DNA of 64,000 nucleotides from Escherichia coli (lineage in GTDB: Bacteria > Pseudomonadota > Gammaproteobacteria > Enterobacterales > Enterobacteriaceae), in NCBI RefSeq assembly GCF_003991155.1, contig NZ_CP031294.1; one strand, given 5' to 3'. Of the stretch, positions 2,454 through 58,445 are shown one piece after another (within the stretch, counting starts at the first letter, position 1; each line of letters opens with the position of its first letter). The notes beneath the pieces were generated by a model. The model saw only the letters and a list, made by a program, of their open reading frames with translations, did no database searches and was not told where the DNA came from. Both the position numbers and the translations under genes were made by a program.

Positions 2454-3206
2454 TTAATCTTTTAGGTATAAACCTACTGGAGTTCTTGTTTTGCGGGAGA
2501 TGATAAGTACGATAAATTTCTGAACGTTAACTTGCACTTTGTTTGGGAGCCAAGAGCTTAACTCTGCATCAAGCAACAATCCTCTGTTCCACGGCAAAAA
2601 TCCGGTTTCTTTCCCCATCCCGTACTCACCTAACACATCTTCGAACGTTTCTGTTTTGGCATTGTATATACGCACATCGCCGGTTCGCATGAGAGGCCCT
2701 GCCCAGATCTTAGCACCAGGAATGGTTTGTGTATCGTCGCAGACTAAATGCTCATACCAATGAAGAAGAAAGAGATAGGTACGGTGACACAATCCTCGCT
2801 GACGACGCTCTCTGACAGTTTCGACACCAGCTACCTGGTAACATTCGATCTCATTACCGTCTTCAACAAAACTATATTCACGCAGAGCTATCCTACCAGC
2901 GATCGTATTTTTGTTTTCGTCCAGAAGCCCGGACTGGAGCACCTCTTTGATAATCTCTTCTTCAGGGGCATCTTCATCCGCTCGATCTAAGATGAATTCG
3001 CTCAGGTCGCCTTGGTCGCGCGCACCTACACGTTCCATAGAGACATACAGGCAAATGTCATCTTCTGGTTCAATGATTTCAATTTCTGAGATTTTATAGA
3101 GGTAGGCTTCATTGATAAGAAAGCCAAAACGAACAACACGAGTCTCCCCTTTATGAGGAAACTCGCTTAGATCTTTTGAATATGCGCTATCTAGTGTAGG
3201 AGCCAT
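2454..3206 (-). CDS. hypothetical protein (250 aa)
   Basis: Long minus-strand ORF in the operon between the lysis genes and parA. No recognisable motif. Confidence 0.45.
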   Translation of the reverse strand: MAPTLDSAYSKDLSEFPHKGETRVVRFGFLINEAYLYKISEIEIIEPEDDICLYVSMERVGARDQGDLSEFILDRADEDAPEEEIIKEVLQSGLLDENKNTIAGRIALREYSFVEDGNEIECYQVAGVETVRERRQRGLCHRTYLFLLHWYEHLVCDDTQTIPGAKIWAGPLMRTGDVRIYNAKTETFEDVLGEYGMGKETGFLPWNRGLLLDAELSSWLPNKVQVNVQKFIVLIISRKTRTPVGLYLKD

Positions 3207-3574
3207 TTTGTAGCAGAATCATCAGCCTTAACCGTGCTGACAATGCTACCATGATTGCGTAAGAAGCGGCGAATAGAATGTTCAATAACCTCCGAAAAAG
3301 CCTCGATAAAACGAGACAGCTCAGGGTACTGTTTAGCTGGCTTGACTACAAAACGAACACGACCATTCAGGTAAATTGCTTCAGCTAATGGCTTCACGCT
3401 TGCACCAGCGCGCTCAACATCGTCTTTGAAGGTAACGATGAAGCGTGAGTCTTCCGGTTCAATAGCGTCATTATTGAGCTTACGTACTTCAAGCTTGTGC
3501 TGATTCAGCACATGAGTCTCGATAATACTCGTGCAATCGCGAATAGTTTGTATAGAACGTTTCTCGTTCAGCAT
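3191..3574 (-). CDS. hypothetical protein (127 aa)
   Basis: Minus-strand ORF that overlaps the next gene by 16 nt, which suggests translational coupling. No recognisable motif. Confidence 0.4.
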   Translation of the reverse strand: MLNEKRSIQTIRDCTSIIETHVLNQHKLEVRKLNNDAIEPEDSRFIVTFKDDVERAGASVKPLAEAIYLNGRVRFVVKPAKQYPELSRFIEAFSEVIEHSIRRFLRNHGSIVSTVKADDSATKWLLH

Positions 3575-3798
3575 GTGTCCACCTTAGCCGTTAACACAAG
3601 TGTCATTGCGGCACCCCTCTCGGGGTTGAAGGCTACGAGGATGCGTAGCCTGTATGTGCCCACTTACGTGGATGCCTAATAAATCTACATCAAATTACTA
3701 AATGATTCAACATGAGCTTGAGTGAACAGGCGTGTATATGAGTGAAGATGCCATCTTTAGGATAAAAGGTAAACTGAGACCACTCATCAATCATCGCC

Positions 3799-4026
3799 TC
3801 AGTTCAGGTGCCCCCACTCACACAGCCTTTCACCTATCGTATTGTGGATAAGCAACTGTCGCTCCGTTTCCTCAGTCATAAAATCCTCTCTACTCACATA
3901 GATAGGATTTGCAGCATCGCAGAATAGCACGCCTGGAGCCTGCGTCTTAATCACGCACCCATTTATCAAGCAGCTCGCGATGAACACCAGAGGCATCTTT
4001 TTGCCGCACTTCATTAACCGTTTCAT
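3799..4026 (-). CDS. Rz1-like o-spanin candidate embedded in, and extending past, the Rz-like gene in another frame
   Basis: The alternative-frame ORF encodes ...MKRLMKCGKKMPLVFIASCLINGCV..., a lipobox-like IASC after a short signal sequence. An embedded or overlapping arrangement is typical of Rz/Rz1. The start is chosen by eye. Confidence 0.3.
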   Translation of the reverse strand: MKRLMKCGKKMPLVFIASCLINGCVIKTQAPGVLFCDAANPIYVSREDFMTEETERQLLIHNTIGERLCEWGHLN

Positions 4027-4198
4027 TTTTGACATCCACTGTGCTTTGAAGTCGTTTTCTGTCTTCCTGTTTTGCCTTCTCTTCCATTGCTCGTCGCGCC
4101 GCATTTCCGCCCATCGTGTAAGCGCCGACAAGAACGAAAAGAACGGCAGCCAGCGTAATCAAAGCAACTTTTAGCTTTGTCATCAGGCTGCCTAGCAT
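3947..4198 (-). CDS. Rz-like i-spanin candidate (N-terminal TM helix plus charged coiled-coil)
   Basis: The 83-aa product reads MLGSLMTKLKVALITLAAVLFVLVGAYTMGG... followed by a K/E/R-rich helix. The gene is adjacent to the other lysis genes. Confidence 0.45.
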   Translation of the reverse strand: MLGSLMTKLKVALITLAAVLFVLVGAYTMGGNAARRAMEEKAKQEDRKRLQSTVDVKNETVNEVRQKDASGVHRELLDKWVRD

Positions 4199-4199
4199 A

Positions 4200-4919
4200 T
4201 TAGACCATCCCTTTCTGGTGTCTTCTTACCTGCGACCAGGCGATAAATCCAGCCACAACAATAGTGGCAATACCGAAGATGATGCGTACTGTATCCCCGC
4301 TAGAGATATGACCTTGTGCTTTATCCATAGCAGCGGAAACCTGCGGCATAACATCGGCCAGCTGCGCCAGACCAATACCTGCTGTAACAGTTGCGCCAGC
4401 GGTTTCTTTAGTTACAGGAACAGCCTTCACGGTTTTCACCGGCTTAACGACGCCAGCTCGACGCAGACCTTCCTCAATAACTTCTGCCGCATACCAGGTG
4501 TTCAGCGTTTTTAGTGGACCTCGACCATTCTCGTGGCGAATGATTGCCTCAACCAAAGGTCGAAGGATGTCGTAATCATGCAGATCGATGATCATGTCTG
4601 CGGTTACACCAACGGCTTTAGACACCTCATTAATGTAGGCGTCAGTGTTGTTTTCATTCGGCGGTGCCCAACGTTCAATAACTTCACGAATGGTATCGAT
4701 ACTTGAGCCGTCTTTTGCGCGACGTTTGTCGTGGTAGGTAATTAGAGTCACCGCCAGCGCACGAATCCCCCAAACAGGGTCTTTAAACGTGCAAAAGCGC
4801 GGTTCGTCTGGATTCGCAACCAGACCTTGCCACGGTGATCCTTTATCAAGATTACCGGGGTTATTATTACGAATGCCTCTCGGAGTCTTCATCCTTGATC
4901 TCCTGTTATTGCAGTCCAC
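4200..4919 (-). CDS. putative endolysin/lysis protein with a C-terminal transmembrane anchor
   Basis: The 239-aa product has an N-terminal motif GIRNNNPGNL and a hydrophobic C-terminal segment IIFGIATIVVAGFIAWSQV. It lies between the holin-like and spanin-like genes. Catalytic class not assigned from sequence. Confidence 0.45.
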   Translation of the reverse strand: MDCNNRRSRMKTPRGIRNNNPGNLDKGSPWQGLVANPDEPRFCTFKDPVWGIRALAVTLITYHDKRRAKDGSSIDTIREVIERWAPPNENNTDAYINEVSKAVGVTADMIIDLHDYDILRPLVEAIIRHENGRGPLKTLNTWYAAEVIEEGLRRAGVVKPVKTVKAVPVTKETAGATVTAGIGLAQLADVMPQVSAAMDKAQGHISSGDTVRIIFGIATIVVAGFIAWSQVRRHQKGMV

Positions 4920-5241
4920 TTTTTACGCCATACGCGGCTAACCCCAAAAGCAGTGCGGTAATAATGAACGACGTTATTTTAGAAACAATGCCGCCAAAGA
5001 ACCCACTTGAGATGGAATCTAACCGGTTAAGGAGTTTGTCCAGATTGGAGTGTTGAATACTATGTTGCGCCGGGGTCATATCACCAAAGTAGGTTTTCAG
5101 CTGATCATTGACCTCCTGGCCAATTTCTTCACGTAGCTCTTTACCTAATTTGCCAACAACCTCCCGAGCAACGATCGCGGCAATACGCTCAACTTGCTCT
5201 GTTGTAACGCCCGCCATCTCGTTCGACATGTTTTCCTCCAT
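4906..5241 (-). CDS. holin-like small membrane protein (single C-terminal TM)
   Basis: The 111-aa product is charged and helical at the N-terminus and ends ...ITSFIITALLLGLAAYGVKSGLQ. It is the first gene of the lysis cassette and overlaps the next gene by 14 nt. Confidence 0.35.
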   Translation of the reverse strand: MEENMSNEMAGVTTEQVERIAAIVAREVVGKLGKELREEIGQEVNDQLKTYFGDMTPAQHSIQHSNLDKLLNRLDSISSGFFGGIVSKITSFIITALLLGLAAYGVKSGLQ

Positions 5242-5431
5242 GAAAAGTCAAATCGGGATGGCGGATTTATATCACACTTCTCCTTTCAATTATAGGTATA
5301 TACTTACCTACCTATGCATATACCGTTTAACGGCTGTTCAAATTCGTATCTAGTAACTCACTAATATATCCCTATGATTGCGGCTGTGAGATCGCATTTT
5401 AAACCTCACAGCCATATAAATAATGTCTAAA

Positions 5432-8400
5432 TCAGTTACTTGTTGCCCCAACAGTACCTGCAAATTTCAGCCATTGACCTGACGGACTTCTATTACTACG
5501 GTAATGATAAACGAGGATTGCGTTTGTAACTCCACCGTAGTCAGCTTTATGTGACGTTGTTAAACGAATTGTATAATCACCGTTAGGTAGATTAAAAACT
5601 TCGATTATAGATTCTGCTAATTCTACAGCACCAAATCCCGTTATATTGTTGATACTGCCAGCATTGAATCCCATAGCATCGCCAAAGCCAATCCAATAAC
5701 TTTTGCTAAACGCCCCATTTGATTTTAGGTGGCTAATGAATGTGGACAAACTCATGCCCATATCCCCACCTGAAACAGAGGAAGTTCGCACAGTCATACT
5801 TGGAAGAGCACTGCTCTTCACATAGGAACTTAGAAGGTTTGTTACCTCTGTTTTCGTATAGGCATTAAGGTTAGCCGCAGTCAAAGTAATATCGGCAGAG
5901 CCATCAAACGCCACACCAGCAATTTTCCTTGCTGTCTGCAATTTTGTGGCAGTGGCAGCATTACCAGTAGTGTTCTGATTACCGGTTGTATTCACACCAG
6001 GTATTGAATCCTTAGCGGTATATACCTGCGCCCACGCAGACCATGCCGCATCAGTGGTATCTCTTCGGGAGCGAATGAAAACCGGCGCATGTGCACCGCT
6101 CGTACCACTCCAGCCAATAAGCAACTCGCCCTCACCAGCAGCACTCGCACCTTTCATGTGCAATACGTTGCCATACGTGGTCGGGTAGCTATTGCTGTAC
6201 GCCTCGTACATTTGAATGCCAGCAGTACCTTGAGCAGAACCGCTTAACGCCGTAACTCGGCCACGAGATACCAATGTATTAATGTTGATATCGCCTGAGC
6301 CATCAAACTTAACACCATTGATGTTTCTCGCTGTTTGCAACTTCGTAGCTGTTGAAGCATTACCGTTCAAACTACCATTTACGCCACCAGTCACATTTAG
6401 TCCATTACCAATTGATACAGCACCGCTGGTATTATTAATTGTAATAGGTCGCAAACCGTTCCATGAACCTAATGTGTCTCCTGATGCTGTTAGCATGAAA
6501 TATGTGTTCGATCCATCATTACGGATAAAGAACCCAAAGCTACCGTAAGCAATGCGGAAACCATTTGCATATTTTGAAATGATCTCGCCAGAAGATGTCA
6601 AACCTCCAGATAATGTACCACCGGTAAGAGGTAATGCACCGACATCAGAGGCTGTTGGTTTGTTTTTCGTGTTATATACTCTTCGCCATCCTGGAGAATA
6701 ATCTGTGCCATTAAATACATAGATAAACTCCGCATTAGTGAGAGCACCAGAGACACTCGTCGTTGTGGCCGTTGTTATACGGATCGTATAATTGTTTGAG
6801 CTACTACCGTTATTAAATACCTCTATAACAGCTCCTGCCAATGGAATAACGCCACAACCAGTTTCACTATTTGGTATGGTTGCACTATTGGCATAGGCCC
6901 ACGCACATCGAGCAATCCATGACTTTGTGTTAAATGCTCCATTATTTTGCAATAACGTCACTAACTGTGCTGTTGTTATTGCTCCGCCATTACTTCCTGT
7001 AGTTAACCAACCAGTAGGAGATGCCGGGCAACCTATATTTGCTGGCGACAAGGAAATATTTGCCGAGCCGTCAAACGACACCCCATTAATAGTACGCGCA
7101 GTCTGCAACTTCGTAGCAGTAGCCGCGTTGCCCGTTGTATTCTGATTACCAGTCGTATTAACACCTGGCAAATTAATATTCGCAGTACCATCAAAGCTCA
7201 CGCCGCCGATAGTTCTTGCCGTCTGAAGTTTTGTAGCAGTTGCAGCATTACCAGTGGTGTTCTGATTACCCGTAGTATTTACACCTGGAAGGTTGATATT
7301 TGCAGAACCGTCGAAACCAACTCCACCGATAGATCTTGCCGTCTGCAATTTCGTGGCTGTACTTGCATTACCATTCAATGAACCAGTTAATCCACCTGTA
7401 ACAGACAACGGACCTGAAACTGTTCCTCCGGTTGTTGGCAGTGCTCCAATATCTGATGGTGTAGGTTTCTGATGTGAGCTATACATCGTATAAACAACAC
7501 CATCGGTAACGCTGGAAGGCTTACTCGCTGAATATGTTGGCGAGGTATAAATAGAAACTGTCGCATTTGCAGTACAATCCCAATGGATATTTACACGAGT
7601 CGCATAATTGCCAATCTCAACGTAAATATCATATGTATCGCCGGATGTGTTGATCCAGGCGAAATTCGTTAATCCGACAGCTGTACGCTTCCACAAAGCA
7701 CCTGTAATCCCTTTGGGGTTTCCATTGCCTGCTCGTAGAACCAGTTCTGAAATGCCTGCCTGATGTGGGGAGCCGACGTTGTAACCAGCGCCACCAATCA
7801 ATGCGATGTAAACGATGGAACTCGCTTGTGGCATGGTAACCGTAGCCAGTTTGAACCACCCTGCCCCGCCAGAGAAAGACATCGTTACTGAATTTAAAGT
7901 ACCAATATCTTTCGGCGTTAATGTGATATCCGCAGTCAGTGCTTTACCGTTAACTTTTCGGTTAGATGGCACCCTGCTATTCGCATTGTCATTGGCTGCT
8001 TTAACTGCTTTTGGCGTTGCGGCCAGCGATTCACTGGTGCTGTCGACAGCACTGCTAAGTTTCACAACACCTTTAGTTGTAAGGCTTGCGTCTTCCATCG
8101 CAACTGCACCGGCAATCTCTTCAGCACGATCAGCAGCAGCTTCCGCACGGGTCGCAGCGGATTCAGCAGCAGTTTTGCTCTGAGATGCTGCCGTCGCACT
8201 GCCTGCCGCCTCTGTTGCTTTCGTGGATGCCGTCGTGGCACTGCCCTTCGCTGCTGACGCCTGTCTGGTCGCCTCATCTTTTGAAGCAGACGCAGATGAT
8301 GCCGATGACGCCGCCGAACTGGCGGACGATGCGGCAGCCGTTTTTGAGGATTCTGCGCTGGTTTCCGACGCTTTCGCGTTCGTTTCGGATGTCTTCGCTG

Positions 8401-9460
8401 CGGAAGCAGACCTCGCTGCTGCGCTGGCCTGTTCAGTGGCTTCGCCAGCCTTCGTTGTGGCTGTTGAAGCAGACGATGCGGCACTTTCTGCCGATTTTCC
8501 GGCGGCGGTGGCACTGGCTGAGGCCTGCCCGGCACTTGTTGACGCGGCACTGGCAGACGACGCAGCCGCTGTTTTTGAGCCTGCCGCAGCTGAGGCACTC
8601 TGTGCTGCTGCCGTCTCAGAAGACTTAGCGTTCGTCTCGGACGTTTTTGCCGCCTTCGCGGAATTGCCTGCCGCTGTTGCCGAGGAGGCTGCACTACTGG
8701 CGCTCAAGGATGCGTTCGTTTCTGATGATTTCGCTGCCTCTTTTGAGGCCGCCGCATCCCGGACTGAGGTGGCAGCTTCTGACGCTTTCGTGGTCGCGGT
8801 GGATGCAGAAGTGGCTGCTGATTGTTGTGACGCTGCGGCATTCGTTTCAGATTTTTTCGCAGCAGTTGCACTCGCACTTGCGGCACTTTGTGAGGATGCC
8901 GCAGCGGATGCACTTTGAGACGCTTGAGAGGCTTTTTCTCCAGCGGTATTGGCGCTTTCTGCTGCTGCGGCAGCACTGGCCGCCGCCTCACGAGCTTTGT
9001 CGCCAGCAGCATCAATCGCGTCAGTGTTATTTTTATACCACTCAACGTTTTCGTTGTGCTCGTTGACGATCTGCATTAGCGGCTTAACGGTTACTTCTGT
9101 ACCGTCTTCACGCTCGATTGTCACCTCATCCAGAGCAGTCAACCAACTGCGCATAGACTTGGAATCAGCCGACATACGCGACATTAGTGCTGTAAAGCGC
9201 GCGCTAAACTGTGTTAAGTCGCCTTCATAGGTCGTAATGATTCGGCACGGAACCTCAGACTGAGTTTCGCCGGTATAAGGTTCTGAGAGAACAATATTCG
9301 TATCGCTTATTACGCGCTTGATCTCATACAGCTTATTGTCGGGGCCAATGACGATCATCCCCGGCAACACACCATTAGCTGTTACGTTCCAGGCTGTCCC
9401 TGCCCCAACCAGAGTATTGCTACCCTGTGTAAATGTGATAGTACCTTCCCTGTACCACAT
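5432..9460 (-). CDS. stf: side tail fibre, lambda Stf-like. It has an Ala/Ser-rich low-complexity rod, five copies of the NASTATKLQTAR-x-I-x-GV-x-FDGS repeat and two related C-terminal-type modules.
   Basis: The 1342-aa product contains the stretch KKSETNAAASQQSAATSASTATTKASEAATSVRDAAASKEAAKSSETNAS..., which closely resembles the lambda Stf middle region. The motif GVNTTGNQNTTGNAATATKLQTAR recurs five times. Confidence 0.85.
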   Translation of the reverse strand: MWYREGTITFTQGSNTLVGAGTAWNVTANGVLPGMIVIGPDNKLYEIKRVISDTNIVLSEPYTGETQSEVPCRIITTYEGDLTQFSARFTALMSRMSADSKSMRSWLTALDEVTIEREDGTEVTVKPLMQIVNEHNENVEWYKNNTDAIDAAGDKAREAAASAAAAAESANTAGEKASQASQSASAAASSQSAASASATAAKKSETNAAASQQSAATSASTATTKASEAATSVRDAAASKEAAKSSETNASLSASSAASSATAAGNSAKAAKTSETNAKSSETAAAQSASAAAGSKTAAASSASAASTSAGQASASATAAGKSAESAASSASTATTKAGEATEQASAAARSASAAKTSETNAKASETSAESSKTAAASSASSAASSASSASASKDEATRQASAAKGSATTASTKATEAAGSATAASQSKTAAESAATRAEAAADRAEEIAGAVAMEDASLTTKGVVKLSSAVDSTSESLAATPKAVKAANDNANSRVPSNRKVNGKALTADITLTPKDIGTLNSVTMSFSGGAGWFKLATVTMPQASSIVYIALIGGAGYNVGSPHQAGISELVLRAGNGNPKGITGALWKRTAVGLTNFAWINTSGDTYDIYVEIGNYATRVNIHWDCTANATVSIYTSPTYSASKPSSVTDGVVYTMYSSHQKPTPSDIGALPTTGGTVSGPLSVTGGLTGSLNGNASTATKLQTARSIGGVGFDGSANINLPGVNTTGNQNTTGNAATATKLQTARTIGGVSFDGTANINLPGVNTTGNQNTTGNAATATKLQTARTINGVSFDGSANISLSPANIGCPASPTGWLTTGSNGGAITTAQLVTLLQNNGAFNTKSWIARCAWAYANSATIPNSETGCGVIPLAGAVIEVFNNGSSSNNYTIRITTATTTSVSGALTNAEFIYVFNGTDYSPGWRRVYNTKNKPTASDVGALPLTGGTLSGGLTSSGEIISKYANGFRIAYGSFGFFIRNDGSNTYFMLTASGDTLGSWNGLRPITINNTSGAVSIGNGLNVTGGVNGSLNGNASTATKLQTARNINGVKFDGSGDININTLVSRGRVTALSGSAQGTAGIQMYEAYSNSYPTTYGNVLHMKGASAAGEGELLIGWSGTSGAHAPVFIRSRRDTTDAAWSAWAQVYTAKDSIPGVNTTGNQNTTGNAATATKLQTARKIAGVAFDGSADITLTAANLNAYTKTEVTNLLSSYVKSSALPSMTVRTSSVSGGDMGMSLSTFISHLKSNGAFSKSYWIGFGDAMGFNAGSINNITGFGAVELAESIIEVFNLPNGDYTIRLTTSHKADYGGVTNAILVYHYRSNRSPSGQWLKFAGTVGATSN

Positions 9461-9553
9461 GTTGAATATGCTCCTTGATTTGGCGGGTTATCCTTGCCCG
9501 CCATTAAGTAAATACTTACCTATTTTTACCGATATAAAATTTTTTTTCCACCA

Positions 9554-12500
9554 TCACAGACGGCCAATTCTTACTCGTAGGACGTTGTTATCGTCATAAA
9601 CGTCAATCCGCTGACCATTTATAACCAATCTCCCATTGCCGCCGCTATTACCGTTGATCTCAAGCGTTCCATTTTTGCCGAACCGCCATCCAGATCTACC
9701 GCTAACAAAATTGGTAGATTGCAGATCGCCTACTTTTGCATTGGTGATTGTGCCATCCTTGATATACGCTCCATTCATATAGGCGATACTGTTTTCGATA
9801 ACAAATGGCGTTGTGATCTTCCCGTTAACAGAGTTGACCAAACCAAACCTGTCCGCCTGAACCAAAAACTGAGATAGCCCAGTGGTGTCAATACCAAGCG
9901 CAATACCGGCAACATACTTCTGCCCTCCGCTCGTTGAAGTCTCCATTTTCAACGTCCACGCGGTTGATACTTTTTTGTTGGTATCAGCAATAGCTGTTGC
10001 CTGCTGTTGAATTGTCGCGGTATTTCCATCCACCTCTGCTTTCAGAGTATCGATTCGCCCACTCAGAGCATTATCTGCCTGCGTTCTCGCTGTCGTTTCA
10101 GTTGTGACCGCCGCAGAAATGTTGGCTGCTGTTTGAGACTCTAAGTTTGTGATTTGAGTCGCCAATGCAGCATCTTGCTCTGTACGCGTTTTCGTTTCGG
10201 TTGCTACAGCCGCTTTAATATCCTCTTTGTATTGAGAGGTCAGCTTGGTGATCTGAGACGACAACGCCGAGTCAGCATCAGTTCGAGCCTGCGTTTCAAC
10301 TGCAACGGCCGCACTAATATCTTTCGCTGTCTGTGCTTTTAAACTTGAAACCTCTTTTGTTAAAGCGGTATCACCATCTGCACGAGCCGTTGTTTCTCTG
10401 GCAAGAGACGCCTCGAGATCATTAGCTTTTGCTGTAAGAGACGTAATCTGGGTAGACAATGCACTATCGGCATCAGTCCTTGCTTTTGTCTCTACAGCAA
10501 CCGCTGCGGCAATATCAGTTCCGGTTTGTGCTCGCAGGCTGTTAATTTCTCGTGAGAGCGCCTGGTCAGCACTTGCTCTGGCCTCCTGCTCCTGAGTGAT
10601 GGCCGCGGATATATCACCGTCAACCTTTGACTGAAGCTGGTTTATTTGTTTGGCTAACGCAGAGTCCCCGCTTGCTCGGGCCTCCTGCTCACTACGTATT
10701 GCAGCAGAAATATCATCATCAACCTTTGCCTGAAGTTGGGTGATCTGGCTTGCCAGAGCCGAATCTTCCGTTGCTCGGGCTTCTTGCTCTTCCTTAATAG
10801 CTGCGACGATATCGTTGCTTACTTTCGACTCAAGCTGAGTGATCTGTGTCGTCAGAGCTTCATCGGCAGATGTACGAGCCTCCTGCTCTGTACTAATCGC
10901 CGCGCTGATATCTCCTTCAAACTTAGATTGCAGCTGAGTGACACGCTTTGCCAACGCTTCATCGCCATCGGCACGAGCGGTGGACTCTTCCAGAATACTG
11001 GCCTTAATGTCTTCGCCAATTTCTACGCGAATTTCCTCAACCTTCGTGGCCATTGCAGACATATCATCAGCAAAGGTTTTCTGTGTTGTTGCGATCTTCG
11101 CGTTATTGACCATCTGCTTGTGCTGGTCTTCATCTTGACGAAGAGCCAGGTCAATATTTGTTTTGGCTAACGCCTCAATGTTCGTAGTCAGTTCTGCACT
11201 GGCACGATCGACCTCTGCAACCGTCTTTTTCATTTCTTCAACGGCAGCGGAGCTTTCCTCTACCGTTGACTGCAACACTTCCAGTTGTTTAGCGTTTGCA
11301 GCATCGCCTTCAACACGAGCCTCGCTTTCCTTAGCAATAAGAGCCGCCGCTTCATCTCTTGCAGCCTTTATTGCCTCGACTGTATTAGCGAGAGCTTTAT
11401 CGTGTTCAGATACGGTGTTTTCGATTTCAACAATTGCAGCATCAGTAGCATCAATTTTTTCAAACGCTTCATTGACCTTGTCGATCGTTGCCGAAACCTC
11501 ACCTTTAAGCTCGGTTTGTGCGTTCTCCAAAGCATCGCTACGCTCGTTGAATTTTATTTCAAAATCCGCGAGGTTATCGCTGAACTGCTTATCTAATTCA
11601 GCTATATCTTCCTTAACGTCGTTTACCGCCCCCTCCAAAGATTCGACGCTCTGGTTGATATGCTCATTTAACTCGTCAACTGCTTCTTGAGAGGCTTTGC
11701 TGTTGATGTCCTCAAGCAGAGCCTGACCAAGCTCGGAAGATGTAATTTTGCCAGTCAGGAACGACAGTACATCGCGAGTTGTCGCCTCTGTACCCAAGTT
11801 TGAGTTCGGAGGACTTAACATACCTCGCTTGTTCGATGCTCGAACCCAGTAATACCACGTTTCGCTATCCCCAAGACCAGCATGTGTAAAGGTGGTGCTT
11901 GCAGACTCTGCGATCAGTTTCGCCGTATCCAGATTGTTGGTCTGGGATGCGTAAACATTAATGTGATCAAGGTCTACCGAATCTGGATTAACCCAATTCA
12001 GTATCACATTACGATAGTCTCCAACGGCCGTTAATGACGTTGGGGCATCCGGCGGTGTCATTGTGCCCAACACCTGATAAACGGTACTGATAATCTCTGT
12101 TTTTTTACCGTTGAATGAAACCGCATACAGCTGGAAGTCGTAGCGTCCATTCTCCGCGACATTAACGATTTCGTATTGCTCTTCGGTTACACGCGCCGAT
12201 TGCCAGTTCGATACATTGTTTTCATCAGAACGTCGCCAACTGATCCAATACTCTGGAGATTTCCCTTCCCATGTTGCAGTCAGTTTTACTGACAGGTTGC
12301 CCGGGCTTGAGAGATAAGTCCCTTCAGTGATTTGCAGATTAGATGGCTTGGAGTAAGTTGGGTCCAATACCGTCGTATTCTGCGGGATCAGCGTTGCACC
12401 ATTGTCGATTGCCTCATATTTAGACGGATTGTTCTCAACAGCGGTGATGTCAAAGCTACCCGGCGTTTCCCCTTGCGCGATGTTAACGATGCGAACGCGC

Positions 12501-14287
12501 ATAGGTTCGAGGTCTGGTTCTGTAATAGTCCAGACGCCGTTCAAAACAGGCGTTTCAGCCGAAGACAGGGCTTTTGAAAACGTAACTTTTGTTATATTTT
12601 CGCCAGTTTCAAGAACATCGCGTTCAACGATTTTGCCTTCCTGATTCAGTATTCGAATAAAGCAGCCGCCTTTGGCTAACGACACAGGCGCATCGAGTGT
12701 GACGCTGTTTTTGGTAAACGCCACAATTCGACCTGAGTTACGTTTGCCTGCGCGATATTTGTTCTGAATCAGAACGGTTTCACCAGGCATCAGAAATGAC
12801 GCGTCTAAGCCGGCAGTAAATGTAATTACATCCGACTCCATTCTGGCGGTATATAAAAGCCACAAACCAACTCGGTGAGCCTGCCCTCGGCTTGTACAGC
12901 CAAATGCTACGACTTCTGTTTTACGCTCACCATAACGGCGCATTGCGTCCTGATCTTCGACGTACTCGATGTTTTGCTTATAACCGTCCTCCTTGTTGTT
13001 GTAGGTTACGAGCGCAACGGATGGGCGATCTTTACGCGCAGAACCTTTATAGGTAAACAATCCATCTTTGACGTTAGAGTTGGTAAACATCATTACCGGA
13101 TCTGATGGGCTATCCTGCATGATGTTAACCATCCCACCAGCCCAAAACACCATGCCGCGGAATGCTCCGGCAATATCCTGAATTAGCCGGTATGCGTCCT
13201 GTCGACTGGTGATCTGCGTATTGATTGCAAAGCGTTTCTCTTTGCCACCAAAGCCATCATCGACCTCTTCGTCACAATATCGACCAATCTGGTACAACTG
13301 GCCAAGGTCAATCATAGATTCCGACACATACTGACCAAGGCCATATCGAGCATTGGTCAGCAAATCAAAGAGAATCCACGCGGGGTTCGAAGAAGACAAC
13401 AGCTTAAAAGTGCCATCCCATACCCCAGCGTAAGTGTTACTGGACTCGTTATAGTTTGAAGGTACTCGAATTTTTAGGCCACGCACCAGATAAGAGCGAG
13501 ATGGCATGGTGCTGCCGAATTGCTCAGAGTTTACCTTCAATCCAACCAAAACAGAGTTTGGATAGTTCATCGGTGTATCGACAATTTCCCCGATTGAATC
13601 CACCCATGTATCGTTATAGAGATACTGGCTACTGTTATCATCGGTAATACGGACCACACGAACCTTGTATGCTCGTCCAGGCTTAGGCAGCTTCAGCTCA
13701 TAGCTACGGTAATAAACGCCGGTCTTCTTTGCTGTTAGCTTAATGCCAACGCTTTTTTCACCTTCAGCGACCACATCTACAAATGTTGAGTCGCCATTTG
13801 CTATCTGGAACTTGTACTCAACAGTCGTACCGTTCGTGTCACCAGTTTTTTTATCTATGCTTCGCAAAGAAGGAAACTTCATGATGACACGAACCCGATC
13901 AGCTTCATCGTTATCGATTGAAACCGTTACATAATGTGTTTTTTTTAACTGGATATTGACGGATTTAGGCGTTTCAACGAAATCAAAGCCAGACATTGGA
14001 GTCTGGTCTTGTGAACCGTCGCGAAAATCCCATGTGATTCCGCTGAAGTTGGAGGAACCGTCTTCATTTACAATCGGCAGATCGTCGATAAAAATAGATC
14101 TTGCGCCATTTACTAAGCCGCCAATTACCCCTTCCCCAAGAAGATCGAGGATAGCGGCCATTGCACGAGAATTTACGGTATCGTCGGCTTCAACCGGTGT
14201 ACGGCTGGAGCTTTTGCTGCTTTTTTTACCACCCGCACCGGCAATAAACAGCGGTAGCTTTTTCTTCTTGAACTGTTCCATGTTCAA
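9554..14287 (-). CDS. central tail fibre / host specificity protein (lambda J-like N-terminal two-thirds, fibronectin-III region, then a long tandem coiled-coil repeat array and a distinct C-terminal domain)
   Basis: The 1577-aa product starts MNMEQFKKKKLPLFIAGAGGKKSSKSSSRTPVEADDTVNSRAMAAILDLLGEGVIGGL, like J. The gene sits directly downstream of the I/K/L/M-like genes. At least ten about 28-aa repeats of the form DISAAI-x-QEARA-x-D-x-AL-x-QITQLQ-x-KV follow. Confidence 0.85.
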   Translation of the reverse strand: MNMEQFKKKKLPLFIAGAGGKKSSKSSSRTPVEADDTVNSRAMAAILDLLGEGVIGGLVNGARSIFIDDLPIVNEDGSSNFSGITWDFRDGSQDQTPMSGFDFVETPKSVNIQLKKTHYVTVSIDNDEADRVRVIMKFPSLRSIDKKTGDTNGTTVEYKFQIANGDSTFVDVVAEGEKSVGIKLTAKKTGVYYRSYELKLPKPGRAYKVRVVRITDDNSSQYLYNDTWVDSIGEIVDTPMNYPNSVLVGLKVNSEQFGSTMPSRSYLVRGLKIRVPSNYNESSNTYAGVWDGTFKLLSSSNPAWILFDLLTNARYGLGQYVSESMIDLGQLYQIGRYCDEEVDDGFGGKEKRFAINTQITSRQDAYRLIQDIAGAFRGMVFWAGGMVNIMQDSPSDPVMMFTNSNVKDGLFTYKGSARKDRPSVALVTYNNKEDGYKQNIEYVEDQDAMRRYGERKTEVVAFGCTSRGQAHRVGLWLLYTARMESDVITFTAGLDASFLMPGETVLIQNKYRAGKRNSGRIVAFTKNSVTLDAPVSLAKGGCFIRILNQEGKIVERDVLETGENITKVTFSKALSSAETPVLNGVWTITEPDLEPMRVRIVNIAQGETPGSFDITAVENNPSKYEAIDNGATLIPQNTTVLDPTYSKPSNLQITEGTYLSSPGNLSVKLTATWEGKSPEYWISWRRSDENNVSNWQSARVTEEQYEIVNVAENGRYDFQLYAVSFNGKKTEIISTVYQVLGTMTPPDAPTSLTAVGDYRNVILNWVNPDSVDLDHINVYASQTNNLDTAKLIAESASTTFTHAGLGDSETWYYWVRASNKRGMLSPPNSNLGTEATTRDVLSFLTGKITSSELGQALLEDINSKASQEAVDELNEHINQSVESLEGAVNDVKEDIAELDKQFSDNLADFEIKFNERSDALENAQTELKGEVSATIDKVNEAFEKIDATDAAIVEIENTVSEHDKALANTVEAIKAARDEAAALIAKESEARVEGDAANAKQLEVLQSTVEESSAAVEEMKKTVAEVDRASAELTTNIEALAKTNIDLALRQDEDQHKQMVNNAKIATTQKTFADDMSAMATKVEEIRVEIGEDIKASILEESTARADGDEALAKRVTQLQSKFEGDISAAISTEQEARTSADEALTTQITQLESKVSNDIVAAIKEEQEARATEDSALASQITQLQAKVDDDISAAIRSEQEARASGDSALAKQINQLQSKVDGDISAAITQEQEARASADQALSREINSLRAQTGTDIAAAVAVETKARTDADSALSTQITSLTAKANDLEASLARETTARADGDTALTKEVSSLKAQTAKDISAAVAVETQARTDADSALSSQITKLTSQYKEDIKAAVATETKTRTEQDAALATQITNLESQTAANISAAVTTETTARTQADNALSGRIDTLKAEVDGNTATIQQQATAIADTNKKVSTAWTLKMETSTSGGQKYVAGIALGIDTTGLSQFLVQADRFGLVNSVNGKITTPFVIENSIAYMNGAYIKDGTITNAKVGDLQSTNFVSGRSGWRFGKNGTLEINGNSGGNGRLVINGQRIDVYDDNNVLRVRIGRL

Positions 14288-14298
14288 AAAATCCTTGT

Positions 14299-14892
14299 TT
14301 ACATTAGCTGGTCAATCGTGATTGAAGAACTCACAACCTGTGAGCCAACCAGAATTTCCTCGCCATAGATAAGTTGTACTGGGTTGCCCTGGTTTTCTGT
14401 ATTTTGAGGGCCGTCGAAATAATAAGAGTTCGAGTTATCTGCCTGTCTCACACTTTCGTTAGTGGCTTGCGGCGATATGATTTGTGATATGCCGCCCATC
14501 ATCAGTGACAAACCGAGAGGTGCTAAAGCAGGCATCACTACCGCCGATACAACCAACAAAGCGGCCCCTACTACCGTCTGAAACCACCCAAAAGCAGATC
14601 CACCGCTTCCTCGCGGAACAGGTGTAATGCGGATTTTGGCAATGTTGTCAGACTGCCCCATCATCTGATATTCACTTTCGTCAACAGACCACTTGTGGCC
14701 CTGTTTATTGGTGATCTGGATGTGGTAACGGTCATAGGTTTTGATATTGCGCTTCATCCATGCTTTAAACCCAGGCTTGTTGGCCTCAATTAAATCCAGA
14801 GCCTGTTTTGTATTGCGCACCTTTAGATGCCAGTGGCGGCCAAAATGTTTGGCCATAGGGCCGCCAAGCTGCACATGAACTAACTCAGACAC
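14299..14892 (-). CDS. tail assembly protein I-like
   Basis: Synteny between K and J. The C-terminus is hydrophobic and Gly-rich (GSGGSAFGWFQTVVGAALLVVSAVVMPALAPLGLSLMMGG) as in lambda I. Confidence 0.65.
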   Translation of the reverse strand: MSELVHVQLGGPMAKHFGRHWHLKVRNTKQALDLIEANKPGFKAWMKRNIKTYDRYHIQITNKQGHKWSVDESEYQMMGQSDNIAKIRITPVPRGSGGSAFGWFQTVVGAALLVVSAVVMPALAPLGLSLMMGGISQIISPQATNESVRQADNSNSYYFDGPQNTENQGNPVQLIYGEEILVGSQVVSSSITIDQLM

Positions 14893-15704
14893 GTCTCATC
14901 TCCCTTGAGCAAGTCTCTGTGACGCAAGTGATGCGTCGTATGTTTCTGATACATTCCGCCGTAATAAGCACGACAACTAAGACGGTCGATCTGGTGATGA
15001 AGAATCATTCCATCGCCGATATAAACCGCGCAGTGATCTGGCATTTTCCCGTATTGAATAAAGAAGACGTCCCCACGTTGAGGCTCTGTTCCAGGTGCAA
15101 GCCGTACCAATCCCTCGTTTCGGTAGTTCTGGTCGAGAATGTCGTTATCGCCGGTGTACCACGATGGAATATGCAGGTGTGCGTTCGGGTTAAGCTCGAC
15201 GTTAAACTCACGCTTCAAATAGTCCCGACACAACATCCAGCAATCGAATACGCCAAATACATACGGTCTACCCAGGTATGGCATTTCGAAACCATCAGGT
15301 GTGATCACATTCATCTCGCTAAAATGGAAAGGGGCATCTCCCTCAACATTCTTGCGAATAGCCAGAATCATCCACGGAACTTCCGTCGCTTCACAGCCTG
15401 CACGATCGGCATCAGATGCTTCTGCTGATTCATCAGTATGTGAATGCCAGATTGCGATTACGTCACCTGCATCCTCTGCCGCCATAATGTCGTCAACGTG
15501 CATTACAAAAGTGTTCTGCGGGTTCTCCGAAACATTTCGCGCTTCCATAAAGCGATATTTGTCGCCATTAGTTCTCACCAGAAAGCCACACGCTTCATTA
15601 GGGTAGCGATTTATGGCGCAGAGATAGATTTGCTGCATAACATCAGAGCCAAGCTCAGGGATTGCTTTATTACCCATATCGCGTAGCTCCAATAAACCCG
15701 CCAA
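14880..15704 (-). CDS. tail assembly protein K-like (MPN/JAMM plus NlpC/P60-like). The true start is probably internal.
   Basis: Carries the JAMM-like HSHTDESAEASDAD motif and a Cys/His region (FDCWMLCRDY...H). It lies between the L-like and I-like genes. The N-terminal 35 nt overlap the upstream gene. Confidence 0.7.
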   Translation of the reverse strand: MAGLLELRDMGNKAIPELGSDVMQQIYLCAINRYPNEACGFLVRTNGDKYRFMEARNVSENPQNTFVMHVDDIMAAEDAGDVIAIWHSHTDESAEASDADRAGCEATEVPWMILAIRKNVEGDAPFHFSEMNVITPDGFEMPYLGRPYVFGVFDCWMLCRDYLKREFNVELNPNAHLHIPSWYTGDNDILDQNYRNEGLVRLAPGTEPQRGDVFFIQYGKMPDHCAVYIGDGMILHHQIDRLSCRAYYGGMYQKHTTHHLRHRDLLKGDETCLS

Positions 15705-16401
15705 AATGGATCACTCCGTTGGCAAAATAATTCCGACGCGCATTACAGGCGTCATAACGTTTTGTGCAGTAATCAGCACCAGACATAGACGTCTGCTGGT
15801 TATTTTTGTCGAAATATGGACCGGTATAGCCGCATTCTGGCCCTCGGTATTTCCACGGGCAGGTGTTTTTAATGATCTGACGATACGGCAGTTGCACCCC
15901 CATCAAATCGAACACACTGGACAATTCAAACTCGACAACCTGATGAGTTTCGAGAGTTTTCTGTTCGATAAACCACATTTCATCCGGGAAATGTTGGTTT
16001 GGATCTGCTGTTGGGTTGCCGTCTTTAAAATTAACGGCATCGAGGAAGCGAGCCAGCGTCATCTTGCGAATAATGCGGCAGCCAACAAGATCGTCGTTCG
16101 CCTGAACTTCCGCAGAGACGGTTCCGGCAAAGTTCGATACCTGAATTTTTGGACGTGGCAACGTTCCCTGGCCAGTTTTGTCAAAGCCTGATGCTTTGAT
16201 TGGCCACGGCTCGTATGTCACTCCTTGCCAGACGACCGGTTGCATCAGTTCGTTTGTTCCGGCGTGGAAGAATAACTTCCCCCCTGAAGTTGTGTTCGAC
16301 ATATCCAGTACGAACAACTCAATGAGTGCAGAGGGAGATAAGCTCTGAATATCAGCTTTAATTCCCATTGTTTCATCCTTGAAATAAGTAGGCGCTAACA
16401 T
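15670..16401 (-). CDS. minor tail protein L-like (C-terminal 4-Cys cluster)
   Basis: The C-terminus reads ...CPWKYRGPECGYTGPYFDKNNQQTSMSGADYCTKRYDACNARRNYFANGVIHFGGF, which matches the lambda L-type Cys cluster. Synteny supports the call. Confidence 0.8.
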   Translation of the reverse strand: MLAPTYFKDETMGIKADIQSLSPSALIELFVLDMSNTTSGGKLFFHAGTNELMQPVVWQGVTYEPWPIKASGFDKTGQGTLPRPKIQVSNFAGTVSAEVQANDDLVGCRIIRKMTLARFLDAVNFKDGNPTADPNQHFPDEMWFIEQKTLETHQVVEFELSSVFDLMGVQLPYRQIIKNTCPWKYRGPECGYTGPYFDKNNQQTSMSGADYCTKRYDACNARRNYFANGVIHFGGFIGATRYG

Positions 16402-57546: not shown

Positions 57547-58218
57547 CTAATCATACTTGGAGGTATTTATCACCAGAATTTTGTTTGTATAAATCTTCTT
57601 AATATCCCATGTGACATTACCGGAATACCATTGACCGTTATATACTTGGTTTCCAGTTGCACCTGTCATTGTTACATAGACAGGTCTGTCGTAATCGGTT
57701 CGTCTATAGTTATATACTCCAACCATAGCAGGCATTACCGCACATGGATACCCCATATCTATTGTAAATTGAGGGTCAGAAATAGTGATAAGTTTCGCAT
57801 CAAGGGGCATCATCTCACCGTGATACACCATTGCGCCTGCGCTGTTATACATGGCAATGCCATAGCCAGAATGTGGTAACACCATATCAGAAAAAGCATA
57901 AACTGTTATTGTTCCGGGGCTACCATTTACCTGATGCAATCTGAGAGCATTGTATCCGTTACTATGTTCATGAATAAACATCATGTTCGCCTTATTACTG
58001 CTTTTTATGAAAAAAAAACATGATTTGTTTGATGGGATTGATGTTTGAAAAACAGAACCTTTAGATGTAGACATTGTCCCTTTATTAATCAGATTTTGCG
58101 GAGTAAATTCAGGACTCATCCACAAACTTCCATCTGATTGAGTAATTGACATCCCGAACATAATTATCCCCAGTATGTGTATATGTAAGAACCAAGCCCC
58201 GTATATAAATTTGACCAA
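57547..58218 (-). CDS. Gly/Tyr/Asn-rich protein (223 aa). Possibly the distal part of a frameshifted gene that continues from 58164-58445.
   Basis: Composition is beta-rich and fibre or lectin-like (…TGATGNQVYNGQWYSGNVTW…). It overlaps the upstream ORF by 55 nt in a different frame. Confidence 0.35.
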   Translation of the reverse strand: MVKFIYGAWFLHIHILGIIMFGMSITQSDGSLWMSPEFTPQNLINKGTMSTSKGSVFQTSIPSNKSCFFFIKSSNKANMMFIHEHSNGYNALRLHQVNGSPGTITVYAFSDMVLPHSGYGIAMYNSAGAMVYHGEMMPLDAKLITISDPQFTIDMGYPCAVMPAMVGVYNYRRTDYDRPVYVTMTGATGNQVYNGQWYSGNVTWDIKKIYTNKILVINTSKYD

Positions 58219-58445
58219 CTAACCGTATTTCCATTAATAGTAACATTTGGAACAGGTAAATTGATGTAGTTGTCGTTGTTAAGAGGCATTAATGACCACA
58301 CGGCATGTAGTGATTTACCCGGTGGCGGATTAGAGTACGTCTTAGAGCCTGATGACGCCGTAAATCGATCAAGAAAAAAAATAGGTGTAAGGAAGCCAGT
58401 AACGTTAATTCCTTTATTGTTGTAAATCCCTGTACCGTATGCCAT
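58164..58445 (-). CDS. Gly/Tyr/Asn-rich ORF (93 aa), possible proximal part of the same disrupted gene
   Basis: MAYGTGIYNNKGINVTGFLTPIFF...GLGSYIYTYWG. Composition is similar to the downstream ORF. Confidence 0.3.
   Translation of the reverse strand: MAYGTGIYNNKGINVTGFLTPIFFLDRFTASSGSKTYSNPPPGKSLHAVWSLMPLNNDNYINLPVPNVTINGNTVSWSNLYTGLGSYIYTYWG

Follow-up and report, generated by a model that had tools for sequence, protein, structure and literature searches.

On the minus strand of the window (the whole 64-kb stretch of DNA analyzed here), a long gene J has L, K-like, and I-like genes immediately upstream and is followed by a side tail fibre gene and then a holin (Table 1). The order M-L-K-I-J-fibre, as annotated in the phage-plasmid Cyrano (pLF82), is shared with lambda. 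A scan for promoters and terminators between J and the side fibre found none. The side fibre includes an Ala/Ser-rich stretch, which we take to resemble that of lambda Stf. RefSeq and ENA records start J two codons further in than we do, at ATG 14281, giving 1575 aa.

Table 1. Features of the J region and of the candidate receptor-binding pair (window coordinates)
Feature	Position	Strand	Details
Side tail fibre, downstream of J	5432..9460	-	1342 aa; T4 gp34-type trimerisation domain
Gene J, tail-tip hub and central fibre	9554..14287	-	1577 aa from TTG 14287; stop 9554-9556
J: hub and fibronectin-III-like domains, aa 1-834	11786..14287	-	Collinear with lambda J 2-808
J: fn3, aa 747-826	11810-12049	-	Pfam
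J: non-repetitive alpha-helical shaft, aa 835-1092	11012..11785	-	Hydrophobic period 3.56; no proline
J: ten tandem units, aa 1093-1421	10025..11011	-	33 aa in nine, 32 aa in one
J: central-straight-fibre (CSF, beta-prism) domain, aa 1422-1577	9557..10024	-	PF09327 at 1425-1559, E 1.4e-41
J: T1/DEV-type terminal cap, aa 1515-1577	9557..9745	-	...GWRFGKNGTLEING...LRVRIGRL
I-like gene	14299-14892	-	phrog_32
K-like gene	14880-15704	-	JAB and NlpC/P60 domains
L gene	15670-16401	-	
Candidate receptor-binding pair	57547..58445	-	93 aa, 58164-58445, phrog_557; 204 aa, 57547-58161, phrog_425

The J reading frame is unbroken over its whole span, real, intact, and under purifying selection. Substitutions relative to three relatives gather at the third codon position of the J frame, and this excess holds within the repeat array as well (197 vs. 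93 and 43). The PLSDB plasmid NZ_OW849379.1 carries the gene at 100% identity, and Cyrano J is 99% identical to it. PLSDB includes 471 J genes in all. Because the same 4734-nt span is common to most PLSDB records among the matches listed (the class with at least 95% identity), we exclude both a frameshift and an assembly error, and J stands as the single gene assumed when the sequence was first read. Opposite-strand open reading frames across J had been put down to the repeat. Six of them had no Pfam match, and one or more relatives have stop codons that interrupt most of them, in line with artefacts. However, they overlap mostly that part of the helix which is rich in Ala and Glu and not repetitive, so composition rather than the repeat explains them.

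In BLASTP, J aa 20-861 aligned with lambda J 2-835 at 32% identity over 860 aa (E 7e-116); the solved lambda chain 8iyk_J was a further match (E 2e-124). With Pfam matches to FNIII-A_GpJ (PF24801, 104-238), Phage-tail_3 (PF13550, 360-523), and fn3, this bears out a J-like N-terminus with a fibronectin-III segment, as noticed from the letters alone. The NCBIfam lambda_TipJ score was 527, far under the cut-off of 1950. We follow the domain names and boundaries published for lambda J (PMC11101478). The gene codes for J, the tail-tip protein, in an SSU5-like phage-plasmid of E. coli, and the product is not a new kind of protein.

A helical shaft of 33-residue units

The repeat in J has a period of 99 nt by Tandem Repeats Finder, and autocorrelation of the protein peaks at 33, 66, and 99 residues, with 50% identity at lag 33. 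The sequence-only reading had the motif, the approximate copy number of ten, and the helical character right, but its 28-residue unit gives way to one of 33 residues. The consensus is D-I-S-A-A-I-x-x-E-T/Q-x-A-R-A/T-x-A-D-x-A-L-x-x-Q-I-T-x-L-x-S/A-K-V-x-x, and a degenerate single copy lies at aa 979-1011 within the non-repetitive part of the shaft. Each unit matched the unit HMM at E 1e-15 to 4e-20, although these values are circular because the HMM was built from the same ten units; independent support comes from the lag-33 identity and from matches in relatives.

Several features point to a continuous helix. J contains no proline between residues 828 and 1493, and AF2 (as a monomer) predicted an unbroken helix over aa 1094-1386 with pLDDT 70-79. 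By Fourier analysis, the hydrophobic period of the array is 3.65-3.67, with a power of 61-106 there vs. 3 at period 3.5, which rules out the heptad register implicit in the sequence-only reading. The best period, 3.65, exceeded the shuffle maximum by a modest margin (106 vs. 88). Each unit instead comprises three hendecads (33 = 3 x 11), with a hydrophobic period of ~3.67. Unit positions 2, 6, 20, 24, 27, and 31 are always of I/L/V type, while E9, R13, and D17 are invariant mid-unit at expected core positions, so the core is partly polar. Our literature searches for repeats in SSU5 or Cyrano J, or for hendecads in phage J proteins, returned nothing specific.

Unit number varies among relatives, supporting the earlier suggestion that it is a variable of fibre length. 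Ten units are present in the window, Cyrano, and CMS175, nine in PhiR41_1 and AH02, six in pMT1, five in SSU5 and TUM12368, and one in a class of 1229-aa J proteins. All repeat indels among these relatives are in register and involve full units of 33 aa. In plasmid AH02, one unit is a hybrid in which nt 1-51 of R4 are joined to nt 52-99 of R5. Unit number thus evolves by in-register gain or loss of entire units. No correlation with side-fibre length was apparent in the very small sample of five relatives (units/side-fibre aa: 10/1342, 9/597, 6/962, 5/1260, and 5/784).

The distal end and a candidate receptor-binding pair

The last 155 aa of J contain 20 Gly and 14 Asn, matching the Gly/Asn-rich terminal domain first described. 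This domain was also said to be unrelated to the lambda J C-terminus, which is correct only in part. Its PF09327 region is homologous to lambda J 841-972, BLASTP aligns aa 1422-1510 with lambda 841-931, and solved lambda J fibre chains match it in sequence as well as fold. Foldseek matched the beta domain to the lambda J fibre (8xcj, 8xci) and to the SU10 tip fibre (E 1e-7 to 2e-5). By contrast, lambda's last 130 residues have no counterpart: Pfam did not find PF12421 (lambda J 1001-1132), the Ig-like LamB-binding end of lambda J, in window J, which ends 18 aa past PF09327. A T1/DEV-type cap replaces the distal end of the lambda CSF, and the chain then stops. The Ig-like receptor-binding domain of lambda is therefore absent and not replaced, and the supposed swapped "non-J" tip is the conserved J beta-prism.

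Exchange of tips within the family does have some basis, as a further domain of ~120 aa follows the shared beta-prism at the distal end of pMT1 J.

Phage T1 and F-type pyocins already exemplify the class to which window J belongs, and J is an unremarkable, if rather long, representative. It shares the order hub, FNIII, alpha-helical shaft (AHS), and CSF with lambda gpJ (8IYK, 8XCJ), but the lambda AHS has only ~53 residues (809-861) vs. ~600 in the window, about a ten-fold difference, and the ~560 extra residues of window J fall inside this ~50-residue segment. In T1 gp33 (9L9P), hub and FNIII domains are likewise followed by a helical shaft whose 33-residue units carry the window J motif (39% identity at lag 33), then by a beta-prism and the cap seen in window J, ending ...LRVxIGRL; neither protein has a covalent receptor-binding domain. 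Its chain 9l9p_S matches the C-terminal half of J to the last residue (E 5e-30), with 986-1168 aligned to J aa 1389-1577 (domain E 8.5e-22). However, gp33 has ~3-4 units in a ~190-aa shaft and 1172 aa in total; its C-terminal 352 aa are predicted to protrude ~370 Å (PMC11945409). Annotation notes in the T1 record list N15 gp21 and HK022 gp24 as J proteins similar to gp33.

Two further solved proteins match the C-terminal half of J. In the F2 pyocin protein PyoF10, a long AHS makes up a coiled coil of three strands, followed by a beta-prism, without a receptor-binding domain (PMC13455828). PyoF10 (25VF, chain 25vf_A, E 1e-24) resembles window J in its J-like hub, much elongated AHS, predicted terminal beta-prism, and lack of that domain, and its last shaft unit aligns with window J. 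Yet the PyoF10 shaft is not as long, and it carries an insertion domain as well as a side-fibre-binding Gly kink, neither of which is evident in window J. Gp56 of Pseudomonas phage DEV (9ZE4, chain 9ze4_N) shares the unit motif, in a coiled-coil segment, and the C-terminal cap (gp56 367-427) with window J, and it recruits the receptor-binding proteins gp55/gp54 (PMC12892993). Still, DEV is a podovirus, its gp56 is just 429 aa and far shorter than J, and its receptor-binding protein genes come next in the same operon.

The concept of a receptor-binding protein (RBP) locus has been developed for T1-like phages (PMC8594841; bioRxiv 10.64898/2026.04.02.716166). The T1 gene order is gp33, gp32, gp31, cor, and in phage tonn a gp32/gp31-type pair adjoins the 3' end of J. 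In the window, by contrast, no such locus adjoins J, and the interval from J or the side fibre to the holin contains no RBP-like gene; the homologous pair is 43 kb from J, and tblastn of T1 and SSU5 Cor against the 64-kb window found no cor. The two proteins fall in the same PHROG families as T1 gp32/gp31 and SSU5_023/024 but are only 24-28% identical to T1 gp31/gp32. In SSU5, the pair sits in the tail module beside a Cor-like gene, and plasmid relatives carry either the SSU5-position or the window-position allele. Yersinia pMT1-type plasmids, with their extra distal J domain, lack homologues of the pair. Stx podophages carry the pair as well, and its PHROG category is moron. PDB sequence searches with both proteins found no match, and a Foldseek search with the AF2 model of the 204-aa protein (pLDDT 79) gave no significant PDB match (Bas18 RBP-LptDE, 9rpt_C, E 0.26). 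From sequence, we infer that this pair is the best candidate for a separately encoded RBP, although an unproven one.

A probable long fibre with a putative separate receptor-binding protein

We consider it likely that window J is a gpJ-type trimeric fibre of ~90 nm, with an expanded AHS, no lambda receptor-binding domain, and probably a separate RBP. In its hub and FNIII region, and again at the beta-prism, the protein is collinear with lambda J, and the AHS between them is expanded to ~600 residues made up of the non-repetitive helical part and the ten units. Because solved homologues are all trimeric (C3 hubs) and the F2 pyocin shaft is three-stranded, the shaft most likely consists of three parallel chains in a nearly straight coiled coil ~90 nm long, which would hold the beta-prism tip far ahead of the tail cone. 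The unbroken AF2 helix, the proline-free stretch, and the solved pyocin coiled coil all favor the elongated, J-anchored helical fibre envisaged by the sequence-only reading. The 1342-aa side fibre would make the first, reversible contact, and binding of the terminal receptor probably falls to the product of a separate gene, docked on the J cap. Display of an RBP on a J-like fibre has been shown for DEV gp56 (PMC12892993) and proposed for T1-like phages. Against this model, a published micrograph analysis of Cyrano reported a tail of 259 nm vs. 230 nm expected from the tape measure and does not mention a ~90-nm distal fibre.

The strongest alternative is that there is no separate RBP, with the cap contacting the outer membrane or LPS, or the side fibre setting all specificity, and the pair being an unrelated moron. 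This is somewhat improbable but carries real weight. It fits the lack of RBP-like genes between J or the side fibre and the holin, the lack of a Cor homologue, and the occurrence of the pair in Stx podophages, and SSU5 reportedly depends on the LPS core. However, the same cap recruits an RBP complex in DEV, in T1-like phages it accompanies a neighbouring RBP locus that comprises these two families, and the pair lies in the tail module of SSU5 by the Cor-like gene, with relatives carrying either allele position.

The helical region could also serve mainly as a rail on which side fibres dock, as happens in the F2 pyocin, whose AHS has a Gly kink to which three side-fibre trimers attach (PMC13455828), or it could fold back into a shorter, thicker bundle. 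The window shaft does contain 14 Gly, several at unit boundaries. Moreover, the side-fibre N-terminus is conserved regardless of the J distal end or unit number (76% identity over the N-terminal 200 aa in pMT1, despite its different J distal end), suggesting that it docks on a conserved part of J. Yet the unit has no fixed-position Gly or Pro, and the AF2 helix is unbroken over nine units. A PDB sequence search with the side-fibre N-terminal domain also failed to match the pyocin side fibre; a search with the side fibre for a pyocin-like OB anchor matched only Mu/P1 S and T4 gp34 segments. The 1229-aa J class, with one unit, would imply that docking does not need the repeats, provided its fibre is of the same type. 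We regard either version as unlikely.

A heptad coiled coil (4 x 7 = 28) bearing a receptor-binding domain from outside the J family is very improbable: its motif and copy number were read correctly and distal modules do vary within the family, as in pMT1, but the 33-aa period, the negligible power at 3.5, the PF09327 match with its lambda alignment, and an end point shared with T1 gp33 and DEV gp56 all speak against it. That J is instead two genes joined by an assembly error, or a misassembled repeat, can be set aside; many public J fragments do stop within the helical shaft or repeats, indicating that short-read assemblies break there, but the full span recurs in most of the listed complete-plasmid records, the codon bias runs on through the array, and the units are just 52% identical at the DNA level, so the array is not prone to collapse.

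A more far-reaching reading, which is possible although doubtful, is that SSU5-like phage-plasmids form a natural fibre-length series (1, 5, 6, 9, and 10 units) with near-identical tips and perhaps an unlinked RBP. To open its tip, lambda turns its short shaft over by ~180 degrees and refolds part of it. A ~90-nm shaft could not flip in this way, so under this reading the receptor signal would have to be passed along the coiled coil or independently of it, and shaft length might match the depth of the host surface layer. Because copy number shifts by whole units, close phage-plasmids supply ready-made length variants, which are suited to asking what fibre length does to adsorption and by what route the trigger signal is relayed. 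As these clinically common E. coli phage-plasmids have no covalent receptor-binding domain, host-range prediction should look to the side fibre and the unlinked pair rather than to the J C-terminus. The chief value of our analysis is nevertheless corrective, in that J is an ordinary homologue of the T1 and F-pyocin class and its "foreign tip" a conserved J domain. The 33-residue unit itself is very widespread (1811 cluster representatives), and public data include J proteins with ~20 units.

Gene J and its relation to lambda J

Gene J, which encodes the tail-tip hub and central fibre protein of an SSU5-like phage-plasmid, shares 99.2% DNA identity with its counterpart in Escherichia phage Cyrano, an SSU5-like siphovirus that is the phage-plasmid pLF82 of E. 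coli LF82, and the gene on plasmid NZ_OW849379.1 is 100% identical. In PLSDB, at least 80% of the gene is present in 164 plasmids, and nearly all listed records of at least 95% identity share the 4734-nt J span. Relative to three relatives, substitutions fall mostly at position 3 of J-frame codons (585 vs. 213 and 93), an excess that persists within the repeat array (197 vs. 93 and 43). With the same span across plasmids and this bias throughout, a hidden frameshift or stop that would make the long frame two genes can be excluded. The start codon is ambiguous, though unimportant, because the AAGGA Shine-Dalgarno precedes the TTG by 5 nt and the ATG at 14281 by 11 nt; this ATG, two codons later, is the start in annotated relatives. 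Directly upstream are L, K-like, and I-like genes; downstream are the side fibre gene and then lysis genes.

Features of the tail-tip region and candidate receptor-binding pair
Feature	Position	Strand	Description
Gene J ORF	9554..14287	-	uninterrupted, 1577 aa from TTG
K-like gene	14880-15704	-	JAB/MPN and NlpC/P60 domains joined; overlaps L and I-like genes on either side
J-fibre gap	9461-9553		93 nt; GC-rich hairpin ggcggg...cccgcc without T-run, then strong AAGGAG ribosome-binding site; no promoter or terminator called by pattern scan
Side tail fibre	5432-9460	-	1342 aa; T4 gp34-type trimerisation domain, P1/Mu S-like segments
Candidate gene 1	58164..58445	-	93 aa, phrog_557, family of T1 gp32
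Candidate gene 2	57547..58161	-	204 aa, phrog_425, family of T1 gp31

On one E. coli plasmid, the J gene is broken by an IS100 (IS21-family) element (NZ_CP035843.1 51616-58305). Dozens of public entries labelled “host specificity protein J, partial” stop at varied points in the helical shaft or repeats (relatives of window 10900-11700), so this region regularly breaks short-read assemblies.

The sequence-only reading had correctly recognized a J-like N-terminus with a fibronectin-III segment. Residues 20-861 align with lambda J 2-835 (BLASTP, 32% identity, E 7e-116), Pfam identifies FNIII-A_GpJ, Phage-tail_3, and fn3 domains, and this part matches the solved tips of lambda, T1, F2 pyocin, and others by sequence. 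The C-terminal domain had been called unrelated to lambda J; instead, it is not foreign to J. PF09327 (Phage_Tail_Tip) covers aa 1425-1559 (E 1.4e-41) and lambda J 845-972, BLASTP pairs aa 1422-1510 with 841-931 of lambda J, and the AF2 model of the C-terminal part is beta-rich and, in Foldseek, closest to the SU10 tail-tip fibre and the central tail fibre of lambda (E 1e-7 to 2e-5). About five residues separate the two aligned blocks in lambda J vs. about 560 here, so the extra material is an expansion of the alpha-helical shaft. Lambda J also has a receptor-binding domain (PF12421, 1001-1132), whereas window J has no counterpart and ends 18 residues past PF09327.

The best lambda fold matches are open-state chains. 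Lambda segment 841-861 is a helix while the tip is closed and turns into beta-sheet once LamB binds; its homologue here, aa 1414-1451 (about nt 9935-10048), is modelled by AF2 as strands at low confidence.

The repeat array and helical shaft

About ten tandem copies are present, as first described, but the unit is 33 residues (99 nt) rather than 28: TRF gives a period of 99, and comparing J with itself gives maxima at lags of 33, 66, and 99 residues, the first of them at 50% identity. Ten units, one of them 32 residues, span aa 1093-1421, and an eleventh, degenerate copy lies at aa 979-1011. Unit scores (E 1e-15 to 4e-20 each) are circular because the HMM was built from the same ten units; independent support comes from the lag-33 identity and matches in relatives. 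The units are 48% identical in protein and just 52% in DNA, with a longest identical in-register run of 12 nt, which makes this an old array and not a recently amplified one.

Unit positions 2, 6, 20, 24, 27, and 31 are I/L/V-type without exception, and A4, E9, R13, D17, and A19 are invariant. Array hydrophobicity peaks at a period of 3.65 residues (power 106 vs. 88 for the best of 200 shuffles), with almost none at 3.5 (power 3). Thus, the repeats are not in heptad register, and the 33 residues are three hendecads. Since coiled coils built on hendecads are well established as a class, this result overturns the heptad assumption and nothing more. The expected helicity was recovered: AlphaFold2 (monomer run, 21-sequence alignment) predicts a single continuous helix over aa 1094-1386 (pLDDT 70-79), and proline is absent over aa 828-1493. 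The 230 residues before the array (aa 862-1092) are non-repeating but helical in character, contain no Pro, Trp, or Cys, and have a hydrophobic period of 3.56 (power 162 vs. a shuffle maximum of 105).

The opposite-strand ORFs across J, previously ascribed to the repeat, do appear spurious, as none has a Pfam match and most contain stop codons in one or more relatives. Still, most of their overlap is with the non-repetitive helical region rich in Ala, Glu, and Leu, so they are explained by codon composition rather than by the repeat itself.

The T1/F-pyocin class and unit number among relatives

The C-terminal half of J is matched by T1 gp33 to that protein’s last residue (9l9p_S, E 5e-30), by F2 pyocin PyoF10 (25vf_A, E 1e-24), and by cap residues 367-427 of DEV gp56 (9ze4_N). 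The same motif also recurs in T1 gp33 as 33-residue units (39% identity at lag 33), and the C-terminal 352 aa of gp33 are flexible, with a predicted protrusion of ~370 A (PMC11945409). In F2 pyocin, side fibres attach at the shaft kink (PMC13455828). In DEV, the receptor-binding proteins are gp55/gp54, which gp56 recruits (PMC12892993). Searching the ten-unit array against 1.84 billion cluster representatives returned 1811 proteins at E <= 1e-3 and 118 at E <= 1e-30. The best 145 of the 1811 include J proteins of 2040-2138 aa with identical Pfam architecture and 19-21 units (up to 18 in tandem), placing ten units mid-range for the family. Window J is a long yet ordinary member of the T1/F-pyocin class. 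We found no description of the 33-residue hendecad unit or its copy-number series in SSU5-like phage-plasmids in the searchable literature; they are a small addition rather than a new kind of system.

The analysis establishes the domain order, helicity, and periodicity of J, its lack of a covalent receptor-binding domain, and its T1-type cap. As all solved homologues are C3-symmetric, and by analogy with the three-stranded pyocin shaft, three J helices would run in parallel and make up an almost straight coiled coil. With a rise of 0.148-0.15 nm per residue, a shaft of ~608 residues would extend roughly 90 nm and hold the beta-prism tip far in front of the tail cone. The elongated, J-anchored trimeric fibre proposed earlier is thus retained as the likely form, but its supposedly swapped tip is a conserved J domain. 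The Cyrano paper reports a tail of 259 nm, where the tape measure would predict 230 nm, and makes no mention of such a distal fibre; this speaks neither for nor against our model because thin coiled coils are easily missed.

As anticipated, repeat number varies among related J proteins, and by whole units.

J length and unit number among relatives
Source	J (aa)	Units	Remark
Window, Cyrano	1575	10	
CMS-2020a (SCU-175)	1568	10	
PhiR41_1	1535	9	single clean 33-aa gap vs. CMS-2020a
Plasmid AH02	1541	9	
pMT1 (Y. pestis)	1531	6	extra distal domain
SSU5	1385	5	
TUM12368	1386	5	
Recurrent E. coli class	1229	1	hybrid of first/last unit

The AH02 deletion fused nt 1-51 of the fourth unit to nt 52-99 of the fifth inside a common GAC codon. 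Within the PLSDB group of at least 95% identity, the number is almost always ten. Unit number is a matter of slow evolutionary tuning, with no rapidly switching locus. Klebsiella relatives have a J of 4056 aa (plasmid NZ_CP022128.1 5238-17408), and in J of the related Klebsiella phage p4727, the FNIII domains are separated from the same beta-prism by a very large insertion that contains proline. Because this insertion sits at the same place, the junction of FNIII and central straight fibre (CSF) seems to serve as a general site for insertions across this family of plasmids.

In pMT1 J (Y. pestis pMT1 3007-8272), the beta-prism is followed by a ~120-aa extra distal domain with no Pfam match. 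From “DGTITNAK” on, lambda-like distal CSF sequence replaces the T1-type cap, and a DUF4376 gene follows J.

Receptor binding and the side fibre

In T1-like phages, J without a covalent receptor-binding domain is proposed to display a separately encoded receptor-binding protein from the locus adjoining J (PMC8594841, bioRxiv 10.64898/2026.04.02.716166), which in T1 comprises gp32, gp31, and cor. We found no such locus between J, fibre, and holin in the window, and no Cor-like gene within it. The candidate pair sits 43 kb from J and is 24-28% identical to the T1 gp31/gp32 proteins. Its members are homologues of SSU5_023/024, located in the SSU5 tail module right before a Cor-like gene, and in phage tonn the same pair directly adjoins the J 3′ end. 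Homologues occur on 182 Escherichia and 40 Enterobacter plasmids but on none of the Yersinia pMT1-type plasmids, where J has an additional distal domain of its own. In some plasmid relatives, the pair is replaced by a divergent allele (26% identity) that sits, like that of SSU5, downstream of the J and fibre genes. For the 204-aa protein, the AF2 model had no significant match among solved structures. On this circumstantial evidence, J may bind its receptor through a protein supplied in trans, a reading we consider plausible while leaning slightly against it.

Despite the different J end, pMT1 retains the first 200 aa of the side fibre at 76% identity, so the docking site of the fibre is a conserved portion of the tip and not the cap (aa 1515-1577). 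No tail-fibre assembly gene follows the side fibre; the holin is next. The fibre also contains a long Ala/Ser-rich stretch, which presumably resembles lambda Stf and is the source of several long spurious ORFs on both strands.
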